Below, in pieces: positions 24,579 to 61,761 of a DNA stretch of 64,000 nt. A program made the translations under genes and the position numbers. Under the pieces are notes generated by a model, which worked only from the letters and a program-made list of their open reading frames with translations, ran no database searches and had not been told where the DNA came from. The stretch lies in NCBI GenBank assembly GCA_944387395.1, contig CALXEU010000017.1, forward strand, positions 92 through 64,091, read 5' to 3'. Positions within the stretch are counted from its first letter, which is position 1, and every line of letters starts with the position of its first letter. The stretch comes from an uncultured Clostridia bacterium. Lineage in GTDB: Bacteria > Bacillota > Clostridia > TANB77 > CAG-508.

Positions 24579-25595
24579 TTAGAAATTTGCATCTTTAACC
24601 TCAACACCAGTATAAAAGTGTTTAATTATATCTTCATATCCGCTTCCACTTTTGGCTAAACTATCTGCTCCTGTTTGACTCATACCAACTCCATGGCCAT
24701 AACCAATTACTTCAAATTTTATATTATCTCCTTCAATTTGAACTGTAAAATTAGCAGACTTAAGAGATAACATACTCCTTACTTCAACACCTGAAAGCTC
24801 TAAATTGCCAAGTTTTAATGTTTTTACTCTATTTCCTTCTGTATATTCTAATATTTGAATGCAATTTTCTTCATCATAATTTATAGAAAATTCTGGATGA
24901 TTCTTTTTTACCATTTCATCTAATTCTGCTTTTGTTAGTATAACTTCCGAAGAATATTGAGTATAACCTTCTTCTCCTGCTGTCTCTACGCTCTGCAAAT
25001 ATGGTAAATCTGCTCCTCCCCATACTACAGAAACATTTTCTGTTTTTCCTCCGCTATTAGCATGAAAAAAAGCATCTATTACTTCATTGTTATATGTAAT
25101 AATTTTTCCCTTTGTTTCATTTACAGCTTTCTCTATTTTGTTCCAGTATTCCTCACGATTTAATTCATCCCATTTACTTAATCTATCTTCTTTATTAATC
25201 CAAGCCTGACAACATGCAGAATTAGTACAAATGTCCGCTCCTTCTGCTTCATGCTTATTTCCATTTTTTATTACATATATTGTATATGTTCTTGCTACAA
25301 CCGCTTGTGCTTTTAAAGCTTCTTGCTCATAACTTGCAGGCATTTCTGCAGACACAACACCTAACAGATATGTATCTAAATCTATTTCTTCTACTTCCAT
25401 TGTATCGTGATGTAATAATTTTATAGTATTAAATTCACCATAATTGTATTGTATTTCCTCATTTACTGTATTTGTTACTGTATTATTTTCTAAAGTTACT
25501 GCTGTATCATATGTTTGAAATTGCTTTGTAAAAATAATTGGAAGTAAAAAAGTAATAAATATCACTCCTAGTGTAATTAATAATAAATTCTTCAT
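24579..25595 (-). CDS. spoIID: stage II sporulation protein D (SpoIID, lytic transglycosylase)
   Basis: SpoIID core LLGVVSAEMP...EALKAQAVVARTY. Start taken at M5 to match the SD-to-ATG spacing seen in the other two copies of the upstream element. The track start is 25607. Confidence 0.8.
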   Translation of the reverse strand: MKNLLLITLGVIFITFLLPIIFTKQFQTYDTAVTLENNTVTNTVNEEIQYNYGEFNTIKLLHHDTMEVEEIDLDTYLLGVVSAEMPASYEQEALKAQAVVARTYTIYVIKNGNKHEAEGADICTNSACCQAWINKEDRLSKWDELNREEYWNKIEKAVNETKGKIITYNNEVIDAFFHANSGGKTENVSVVWGGADLPYLQSVETAGEEGYTQYSSEVILTKAELDEMVKKNHPEFSINYDEENCIQILEYTEGNRVKTLKLGNLELSGVEVRSMLSLKSANFTVQIEGDNIKFEVIGYGHGVGMSQTGADSLAKSGSGYEDIIKHFYTGVEVKDANF

Positions 25596-25607
25596 TATTC
25601 TTCGCAT

Positions 25608-25755
25608 TCCTTCTTAAGGAAAAATTTGATTGGAAAAGAATTAAATTTTGGCTAGGAAAGCAAGTTTTAAATTTATGAGGCGTACTCATTGTACGTTGAT
25701 TAAATTTAAAATGAAGATTGTGGGCGCCAAAATTGTAATTATTTTTCAATCCTTC
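25608..25755 (-). repeat. structured ~150-nt leader-like element, copy A (family of 3), upstream of spoIID
   Basis: About 85% identical to 55157..55315 and 61605..61752. Long closing helix (ATTGAAAAATAATTA...TAATTCTTTTCCAAT, plus ATTTTGGC/GCCAAAAT). Internal hairpin AAATTTA..ACGTAC-loop-GTACGT..TAAATTT. Ends at SD-like GAAGGAATG. Confidence 0.6.
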
Positions 25756-25773
25756 CTCGTTTCATAATTTATA

Positions 25774-44175: not shown

Positions 44176-44526
44176 TTAAGCATTTAAGCTTGTTAGTTCT
44201 TTGCTTATACTATTCAATATTCTTTCTATTTTTTTATCTGATGCATTGTCTTTAATTTTGCTTAATTCTGAAAGAACATTTTGAATTAGTTTTTCTTGTT
44301 CTATTGTCTTTTTCATGATTCCTAACTTTTGCTCGTATTGCAAGAGTCTTGCTTCTCCTTTCTTAACAATGTCGTTAATTGCCTGTCTTGTTGTTTTATT
44401 GTTTTGGGCGATTTCTGTTAAAGATAAGTCTTGATTAGCGTAGTCATTTATAACATTTCTTTGCTTTTGTGTTAAGAGATTTCCATATATGTCACATAAC
44501 ATTCCTAACTCTACTTTCTTTTCCAT
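44176..44526 (-). CDS. ylxM: YlxM/UPF0122 putative DNA-binding protein
   Basis: About 110 aa with a sigma-70 region-4-like HTH. Immediately upstream of ffh. Confidence 0.75.
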   Translation of the reverse strand: MEKKVELGMLCDIYGNLLTQKQRNVINDYANQDLSLTEIAQNNKTTRQAINDIVKKGEARLLQYEQKLGIMKKTIEQEKLIQNVLSELSKIKDNASDKKIERILNSISKELTSLNA

Positions 44527-44699
44527 ATTATCACCGACCTTTAATAAATATAAGACATTATTTTATTGTTAATTTTGTAATGCTAATATACTTTACAATA
44601 TTTTTTGTGTTTTGTCAAGTATTTTAGCGCATTTTACATTTATTTTAGAAAAATTAATCGTATAAATTTAAAATAATAGATAAAGTTAATCTATGGTAT

Positions 44700-55156: not shown

Positions 55157-55315
55157 TTTTATTCACATTCCTTTCTAGGCATAAAACTGGTTGGAAAAGA
55201 ATTAAATTTTGACTAGAAAAATGAGTTTGAAATTTATGAGGCGTACTCCTTGTACGTTGATTAAATTTCAAATGAAATTTGACAACGTCAAAATTGTAAT
55301 TATTTTTCAACCTTT
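55157..55315 (-). repeat. structured ~150-nt leader-like element, copy B, upstream of the HIT gene
   Basis: Aligns with copies A and C. Closing helix GGTTGAAAAATAATTA / TAATTCTTTTCCAACC. Inner helix ATTTTGAC/GTCAAAAT covaries with A and C, which have GGC/GCC at the same positions. Ends GAAAGGAATGTGA. Confidence 0.6.
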
Positions 55316-55334
55316 CCTCCATTTTTATAACAAT

Positions 55335-61534: not shown

Positions 61535-61604
61535 TTTAAACAATTCAAATTATTATATGGAGCCAAAGTATTGATATTTGGCTCCTAAATTTAAGGATAA
61601 CAAA

Positions 61605-61752
61605 GGTTGAAAAATAATTAGGATTTTGGCGTTGTCAATCTTCATTTTTAATTTAATCAACGTACAATCAGTACGTCTCATAAATTTAAAATTCGCTTTC
61701 CTAGCCAAAATTTAATTATTTCCCAACCGAATTTGTGCCTTTGGGAAGGAAT
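61605..61752 (+). repeat. structured ~150-nt leader-like element, copy C, between pflB and pflA
   Basis: Same family as copies A and B. The 3' strand of the closing helix (TTCCCAACC) can alternatively pair with the SD region (TTGGGAAGG). Confidence 0.6.
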
Positions 61753-61761
61753 GAGAAAAAA

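Follow-up and report, generated by a model that had tools for sequence, protein, structure and literature searches.

A probable non-autonomous mobile repeat with a candidate ribosome-binding site in uncultured gut Clostridia

We have analyzed a sequence that occurs in three copies (A, B and C) in a 64,000-nucleotide (nt) stretch of contig CALXEU010000017.1 from an uncultured Clostridia bacterium (hereafter the window). Our best explanation, to which we assign a probability of roughly 0.6, is that the element is a non-autonomous, hairpin-forming mobile repeat of a clade of uncultured low-GC gut Clostridia, akin to miniature inverted-repeat transposable elements (MITEs) and serving as a portable ribosome-binding site (RBS). 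The element is inserted DNA, mobile or at least insertable, and is present in one and absent from the other of near-identical strains. It lands in the translation-initiation region with strict polarity, and its hairpin can be lost later while its tail stays. The original prediction held that these stretches are not a plain repeat, which agrees with an element that is directional, forms a hairpin and is kept by compensatory change. One of the forms it proposed, a structured mobile leader cassette, came close, in that the element is always part of the leader, or of the RNA between cistrons, of the gene downstream and carries the Shine-Dalgarno (SD) motif for that gene.

Copy A (25596-25752, minus strand) lies upstream of spoIID, and the corresponding empty allele is found in contig L121, which comes from a different sample. 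The SpoIID of L121 belongs to the same 90% cluster, the flanks are 97-98% identical to those of the window, and copy A is missing. The sigF-spoIID gap of L121 is 30 nt long and reads GAAACGAGGA-G-ATAATGAAG, and at the same junction the window reads GAAACGAGGA, a 155-nt segment (25599-25753) and ATAATGAAG. The insert sits between the native SD (GAGGAG) and the ATG, with the native SD stranded upstream and the tail SD beside the ATG. The hairpin core of copy A (25628..25752, minus strand), which falls inside this segment, has two variable closing pairs (GA..TC), TTG...CAA imperfect inverted repeats and a central ACGTAC-loop-GTACG hairpin. Its 3' tail, AAATTTTTCCTTAAGAAGGAATGCGAAGAATA (25596..25627, minus strand), supplies a substitute SD and runs up to the start codon of spoIID (25595), and the SpoIID product starting at 25595 has an exact match on record. 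The remnant of the native spoIID RBS, GAAACGAGGA (25754..25763, minus strand), lies upstream of the insertion and is identical to the sequence directly before G-ATA-ATG in the empty allele. A native SD upstream of the insert is thus seen directly in this near-isogenic pair; the other copies are located between the upstream stop codon and the RBS of the next gene, or after an SD-like motif.

Structure of the element and its copies

One unit forms an imperfect palindrome of roughly 125 nt, NN-TTGAAAAATAATTACAATTTTGGC ... GCCAAAATTTAATTCTTTTCCAA-N'N', consisting of a 120-nt core that runs from TTG to CAA in 76 of 86 copies and two variable closing base pairs on each side. Its imperfect arms of about 26-28 nt are terminal inverted repeats (TIRs). 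The helix boundary is sharp: pairing is found in 82/83 and 68/83 cases at the two positions outside TTG/CAA and then falls to a background of 28/83, and the two outermost base pairs of the hairpin covary freely. A tail of ~32 nt (..AGATTTGTGCCTTAGrAAGGAATGnGAttAAAa), present in 61 of the 86 copies, runs to the start codon and carries the SD-like motif AGrAAGGAATG; sequence conservation ends at the ATG. Of these 61 tail-bearing copies, 36 have GGAATG 9 nt before the start and 10 have it 8 nt before. A minority of copies have a short form that ends after about AGATTTGT and lies 21-365 nt upstream of a gene that has a canonical SD of its own; in many cases this form follows the upstream stop codon directly. 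An SD-like motif also occurs 5-9 nt before the TTG of the element in 49 of 60 tail-bearing copies, compared with a background of 11%. The idea that this purine run duplicates the tail SD was rejected, since the tail stays constant regardless of the 5' flank. In predicted ensembles, accessibility was 0.56 for the tail SD and 0.61 for the AUG, versus 0.34 for the hairpin body. Three more [AG]A[AG]GGAATG motifs are located at least 6 nt upstream of ATGs in the window (3440, 49552 and 63418, all on the minus strand) with no hairpin nearby; base composition predicts 0.2-2 of these, and they may be relic tails or a local SD flavor.

The three look-alike stretches in the window proved to be real copies of one sequence, with a mean column identity of 84% in a three-way alignment. 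A 38-nt core gave three matches in the window at up to 3 mismatches and none in 100 shuffles, and a profile of 77 related copies (nhmmer, E<=10) found no further copy or remnant in the window beyond A, B and C. As had been claimed, each copy has the orientation of its downstream gene (spoIID, HIT and pflA, respectively). Recorded Pfam assignments of these genes, or of members of their clusters at 90% identity or more, are SpoIID, HIT and Radical_SAM/Fer4_12 (the pflA product), and the gene pairs around the copies are sigF/spoIID (A), a 584-amino-acid AlaX/AlaRS-like gene and HIT (B), and pflB/pflA (C). The gap to the upstream stop codon was measured at 21, 22 and 70 nt, which departs from the predicted 3-60 nt. 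An SD-like motif (GGAATG) does precede the start codons, at 8-9 nt, close to the 10-11 nt proposed.

Complementarity of the 5' and 3' ends was likewise borne out, since all three copies fold as a single long hairpin (z = -5.5 to -6.5), and the opposite strand of each window copy folds still better than the sense strand. Both of the compensatory changes noted earlier are correct: an outer pair is A-U in copy A and G-C in B and C, and a second pair is A-U in copy B and G-C in A and C (TTTTGRC/GYCAAAA). The central ACGTAC-loop-GTACG hairpin is present as described. A TTGAC-N3-GTCAA palindrome exists in copy B, where GAC is a variant pairing with the GTC of the 3' arm; the palindrome is without covariation support and shows no conservation of its own. 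In the fold predicted for copy A (25596-25763), the native SD left upstream, GAGGAAGGA, is paired with a pyrimidine run, UUUUUCCUU, where the tail begins. The main helix becomes longer by this pairing, and the former SD would be masked.

Copy B (55157-55312, minus strand) lies upstream of the HIT gene, with its hairpin core at 55189..55312 and its tail, AGTTTTATGCCTAGAAAGGAATGTGAATAAAA, at 55157..55188, ending at the HIT gene start (55156). An SD-like GGAGG (55316..55320, minus strand), 5 nt upstream of the TTG of copy B, is presumably a native RBS, belonging either to the HIT gene or to a partner in recombination. Copy C (61605-61761, plus strand) lies upstream of pflA, with its hairpin core, delimited by alignment and fold, at 61605..61728 and its tail, GAATTTGTGCCTTTGGGAAGGAATGAGAAAAAA, at 61729..61761, ending where pflA begins (61762). 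A PflA product with this start has an exact match on record, and the copy C site is also occupied in L123 (99% identical) and in L007.

A scan for the core AATCAACGTACAANNAGTACG in one genome per species, in which retrieval needed 19 exact core bases, identified at least 114 loci from about 58 species-level assemblies, and a profile search of these loci yielded at least 133 places. Among the loci listed, nearly all hosts are uncultured low-GC Clostridia or 'Clostridium sp.' metagenome-assembled genomes (MAGs) from the gut of humans, rabbits, chickens and mice; one carrier is a complete circular chromosome of 1.57 Mb (OZ007016.1), and up to 5 aligned full-length copies occur in a single assembly. 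Copy identity averages 90% between assemblies and 92% within an assembly, figures that are inflated because retrieval required the 19 exact core bases. Copies are about 90% identical across species, whereas orthologous flanking genes are only 70-80% identical. In one MAG, paralogous copies are 98-99% identical, and one of them sits where the window, too, has a copy.

At the gathering threshold (Rfam 15), the Rfam matches in the window were three tRNAs, none of which match the element, and a permissive Rfam search over copy A gave noise only. BLAST searches with the element consensus had no match among PLSDB plasmids or INPHARED phages, nor did the core-motif scan of IMG/VR return any, and the element is not described in Rfam or in the full-text literature searched. 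The downstream genes are diverse (MetRS, exonuclease III (ExoIII), Pyk, peptide deformylase (Def), Upp, RNase HII, UppS, DapA, IspH and Pta, by Pfam). A regulon signal was rejected, as these are unrelated housekeeping functions, together with SpoIID, HIT and PflA. A 127-nt subfamily in L016, L100, L050, L077 and L002 has GCGCAGTGGCG in place of GTCAA in the unpaired 5' internal region, a change that also cuts short, at codon 18, the open reading frame (ORF) considered below.

Insertion, placement and decay

Non-random orientation had been set as a test, and 79 of the 81 copies with a called downstream gene are co-oriented with that gene; the upstream gene is also co-directional in 62 of the 81. 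Relative to a per-base expectation, copies are scarce in convergent intergenic regions (1 observed, 7.6 expected) and in divergent ones (8 observed, 16.4 expected), and frequent in co-directional ones (77 observed, 62 expected). The GC skew of the window is negative throughout and copy C is still oriented with its plus-strand gene pair, so that orientation tracks transcription and not replication in this single case. Both the scarcity of copies between convergent genes and the constancy of the junction at the ATG suggest targeting by a mechanism, at least in part, which is inseparable here from very strong selection.

Distant empty sites add to the L121 comparison. The sigF and spoIID genes are 9 nt apart in L056; the site at a ylxM-like gene is empty in the window (44521-44569) and in L001 and filled in L087; and a further site is empty in L055 as compared with L040 and L098. 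Decay of the element is also evident. The 5' half of the repeat is joined directly to the tail in the deletion footprints L078, L065, L010 and L110, and internal deletions are found in L043, L098 and L051. At the copy B site, L126-L129 retain a short 3'-arm remnant and the same tail intact, AGAAAGGAATGTAATAAAAATG, without the hairpin; these loci were rejected as a pristine empty site for copy B, and are deletion remnants. Footprints that retain the tail without the hairpin indicate that the hairpin is dispensable at a site.

At the pta-ackA site, tandem full and partial copies were observed (L040:2514-2713 versus L098:2794-2842; L019 versus L043:4824-4872), and the Pta frame ends within the TTGAAAAATAA of the element. 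The orthologous sites in related MAGs hold only a 24-50-nt stub, which implies repeated insertion and deletion at the same sites.

L118 is 97% identical to the window downstream of copy B, with the homology starting exactly at the 5' edge of the element and its core. Upstream of this breakpoint, L118 (3197-3364, 4654-4812) carries metK instead of the AlaX-like gene, and it has a second copy between mnmA and metK. The breakpoint suggests a genome rearrangement by recombination between copies, and the element marks a breakpoint of synteny there. Short-read contigs end inside the element, and exact-protein look-ups for HIT and SpoIID first gave only such contigs; contigs ending in the element could help explain the fragmented assemblies of uncultured gut Clostridia.

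These results lead us to propose that the tail would act as the working RBS of the downstream, often essential, gene, with essential genes coming to depend on it, as is suggested by its outliving the hairpin and by its greater predicted accessibility. Insertions would be tolerated because of this role of the tail, and the sense orientation would be tolerated because the hairpin in the mRNA is ~12 kcal/mol weaker than on the opposite strand and the SD faces the gene. The hairpin is probably kept for propagation of the element itself, through recognition by a putative trans-acting enzyme, probably on folded or duplex DNA, and no service to the host as RNA need be assumed. Once transcribed, the hairpin may incidentally influence how the mRNA is processed or how stable it is. 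The native SD may also drive translation from the TTG of the element through the hairpin and into the tail, in a frame that is not maintained, and this may help to keep the tail open. A selfish repeat of this kind could occupy the few bases between an SD and its start codon, the most sensitive ones of a gene, by bringing a substitute RBS, as harm-minimizing mobile DNA, and its tail could then become the permanent RBS of essential genes. The filled and empty spoIID alleles constitute a natural pair for the effect of a 125-nt leader hairpin on expression.

Several observations weigh against a MITE-like origin. No general target-site duplication (TSD) was found in the flanks of all copies or in the near-isogenic filled and empty pair. 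The flanks beside TTG/CAA are inverted complements and not direct repeats, the junctions of copy A share only an imperfect 6-nt CGAGGA/CGAAGA (in the sole near-isogenic pair), and a general target duplication is discounted because unrelated sites of one genome share the same 9-nt spacers. No transposase was identified for the element in the sampled sequence, and the ~0.98 Mb of window and loci contain no autonomous insertion sequence (IS) with the same ends, only deletion footprints. In the sampled loci no ORF is flanked by inverted copies, and multi-copy loci are all of a single orientation. The element avoids convergent gaps, unlike ordinary MITEs, and therefore either mechanistic targeting or unusually strict selection has to be invoked; the pneumococcal repeats BOX, RUP and SPRITE are over-represented between convergent genes (PMC3049150). 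Lastly, the identity of ~90% among copies, set against 70-80% for the flanking genes, could also reflect a host-level function.

Covariation, strand preference and alternative explanations

An excess of compensatory change had been set beforehand as a test and was clearly found. Among 77 distinct copies, all from other genomes, both sides have changed in 19 of the 40 pairs, compared with 5.6 +/- 1.2 after shuffling and with at most 6 in a slid-partner control; the two compensatory changes noted earlier belong to these. The covariation score was 0.123 versus 0.041, and 98.6% of cells form standard pairs. This strong covariation means that the hairpin is under constraint or concerted correction. 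The antisense strand is the more stable in 77/77 copies (-45.0 versus -32.9 kcal/mol for the sense strand), as it is in the consensus fold (-44.6 versus -26.6). Three A.C oppositions that would be G.U in the antisense strand are kept in the sense strand, where the 13 wobble cells do not outnumber the 22 cells of A.C/C.A. Many of the compensations are transversions (G-C to U-A, A-U to C-G) with almost no one-sided intermediates. Covariation of the element cannot separate an RNA constraint from a DNA constraint. The structure is not tuned for sense RNA, and the pattern fits DNA-level processes at least as well as RNA selection. Such processes could be selection on the ends for recognition or the template-switch correction of quasi-palindromes, which is an established process. 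A general caution is that strong covariation in a long inverted repeat is on its own no evidence for a functional RNA.

An extension of our explanation, which we entertain as a possibility and hold only tentatively, is a mobile cassette for RBS replacement. Its spread would be tied mechanistically to the SD-AUG spacer or the AUG, by strand-specific hairpin DNA or by RBS-microhomology copy-paste, and it would rewrite the RBSs of essential genes across the clade and leave its tail behind as the permanent RBS.

A more specific version of our explanation supplies a mechanism of spread, but we regard it as doubtful. The element would be a single-strand hairpin DNA of the IS200/IS605-PATE or REPIN-RAYT type, or would spread by RBS-microhomology copy-paste, with the better-folding bottom strand being active and guided insertion beside the ATG producing no duplication. 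Like REPINs and PATEs, the element is hairpin-shaped and non-autonomous, shows compensatory change without target duplication, is consistent with action on one strand and has persisted for long within a clade. The strict directionality and the lack of a detected TSD are in keeping with this mechanism, as are the right junction at the ATG and the left junction after the native SD-spacer, the depletion from convergent regions, and the 98-99% identical copies within one MAG, including one at a site filled in the window. The antisense strand is more stable by ~12 kcal/mol through its G.T/G.U positions, and the free covariation of the two outermost pairs recalls guide and cleavage-site pairing. On the other hand, the element has one long hairpin and not two subterminal hairpins, its 5' flank is variable with no conserved tetra- or pentanucleotide, and its 3' flank, ATG, is confounded with gene starts. 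Unlike the short, GC-rich REP sequences of RAYT-mobilized REPINs, its arms are AT-rich, are not self-palindromic and lack a GTAG-type motif. In the sampled loci, no RAYT or TnpA partner was seen, nor any Y1/HUH gene flanked by copies. The better-folding strand is antisense to the genes, and this bottom strand of co-directional genes is the leading-strand template, whereas IS608-type elements use the lagging-strand template.

The structured cis-acting RNA of the original prediction was not substantiated, and we consider it unlikely. The hairpin and tail would here be a selected leader or intercistronic device of benefit to the host, spread by duplication and kept by selection on RNA structure, for example as an RNase III processing site, as a 5' stabilizer uncoupling cistrons or as a translational-coupling leader. 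In its favor are the co-orientation with transcription almost without exception (79/81), the strong covariation, the high conservation of sequence across species and an mRNA position that is always just 5' of the RBS. In tail-bearing copies, a native SD at start-codon distance from the TTG and a ~48-codon frame ending in the tail also have the geometry of termination and reinitiation. However, the sense strand is the weaker folder in 77/77 copies, with its three conserved A.C mismatches being G.U in antisense. There is no excess of G.U over A.C intermediates, and compensated transversions that bypass wobble are common. The hairpin is dispensable per site, as seen in near-isogenic empty alleles and in footprints with the tail only. 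The ORF is broken in ~30/86 copies, including copy C, and has no codon periodicity, and the downstream genes share no functional theme.

It had also been argued that copy A must carry the spoIID promoter. This is not borne out by L121, a near-isogenic allele without the element and with sigF and spoIID only 30 nt apart, so that the promoter need not lie in the element. A sigma-70-type scan found no match wholly inside copy A and one weak 9/12 match that straddles its 5' edge; the total of four matches in the copy A region equals the shuffle mean. The sigma-E-like string reported earlier is exact in copies A and C and differs at its final base in B (CGTACAAG). A promoter in the element was rejected, as the sigma-E-like -10 overlaps the hypervariable loop and the downstream genes are housekeeping genes.

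It is very improbable that the TTG-initiated ORF of ~48 codons (MKNNYNFGVVKLHLKFNQRTKSTPHKFQTRFPSQNLILFQPDLCLRKE) is a real, duplicated micro-protein gene. Its frame is open in the consensus, with the other two sense frames closed, and an SD-like motif precedes the TTG in most tail-bearing copies, as given above. Premature stops nevertheless occur in about 30 of the 86 copies, some of them made by double changes that preserve the helix, and in copy C the frame closes after 4 codons. No codon periodicity is seen in the substitutions per column (4.94, 3.91 and 4.82 for positions 1, 2 and 3), and differences from the consensus comprise 94 synonymous, 304 nonsynonymous and 28 to-stop changes. The coding reading was rejected on the stops and the lack of periodicity. 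Scarcely credible, finally, is an integron attC site marking gene cassettes, which has for it a size of roughly 125 nt, imperfect dyad symmetry, high similarity among copies, co-orientation with the following ORF and better folding of the bottom strand, all of which resemble Vibrio cholerae repeats, but which is rejected on motif order (the ends GTTG...CAAC, or GTTGAAA ... TTCCAAC, reverse the order RYYYAAC...GTTRRRY) and on genomic organization, as the copies form no array, are dispersed among syntenic core genes (sigF-spoIID, pflB-pflA, pta-ackA), and the genes of one pair are neighbors both with and without the element.

Known repeats and further observations

We return to our preferred explanation, a MITE-like mobile repeat with a portable RBS, to place it among repeats already described. 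The closest in role are the Neisseria REP2 and Borrelia plasmid inverted repeat (IR) sequences, which supply a promoter, an RBS and an ATG upstream of unrelated ORFs (Delihas 2011, PMC3184786). Like the element, these are dispersed immediately upstream of unrelated ORFs, have an RBS leading up to the ATG and contain internal stem-loop inverted repeats (PMC3184786). They differ in carrying a promoter and in having no TIRs, whereas the element is one long TIR hairpin without a sigma-70 consensus promoter. In addition, the element is mostly intercistronic and belongs to another phylum, and the comparison is one of descriptions and not of sequences.

In form, the closest are Correia-type MITEs and REPINs. 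MITE features seen in the element are its small size (a core of 125 nt and a tail of 32 nt), non-coding nature, TIRs, dispersal and presence/absence polymorphism; a direct TSD is the feature missing. It shares with Correia (CREE/NEMIS), ERIC, RUP, BOX and Chunjie elements a non-coding length of 100-160 bp, TIRs of ~26 bp and many dispersed copies, and, with Correia and other MITEs, co-transcription with neighboring genes, long RNA hairpins and strain-variable presence. Correia elements differ in duplicating a TA target and in having IHF sites and promoters. Ordinary MITEs lack its near-absolute orientation, its depletion between convergent genes and its SD and spacer abutting the start codon. 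Rickettsia palindromic elements (RPEs) are also mobile palindromic repeats, of ~150 bp, that survive at normally forbidden sites by means of expression-compatible sequence. RPEs insert in-frame within coding regions and are translated, while the element keeps to a place just outside the ORF, where it substitutes for the RBS. Relative to REP2, then, the element is new in its TIRs and its lack of an evident promoter, and relative to MITEs in its RBS at the start codon, its orientation, its avoidance of convergent gaps and its lack of a detectable duplication.

Two other hairpins were noted near the sites described. A different, GC-richer palindromic element of 106 nt (GTGCCAAAGGGGACGGGCTATTTTGGCAAT...ATTGCCAAAATAGCCCGTCCCCTTTGGCAC) occupies the sigF-spoIID junction of L112 (6628-6733), just upstream of the spoIID SD, and has no other copy among the sampled loci. 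In the window, a GC-containing, terminator-like hairpin, GGAGCCAAAGTATTGATATTTGGCTCC (GGAGCCAAAG...TTTGGCTCC), read from the sequence at 61559..61585 on the plus strand, follows pflB and lies upstream of copy C, outside the repeat.

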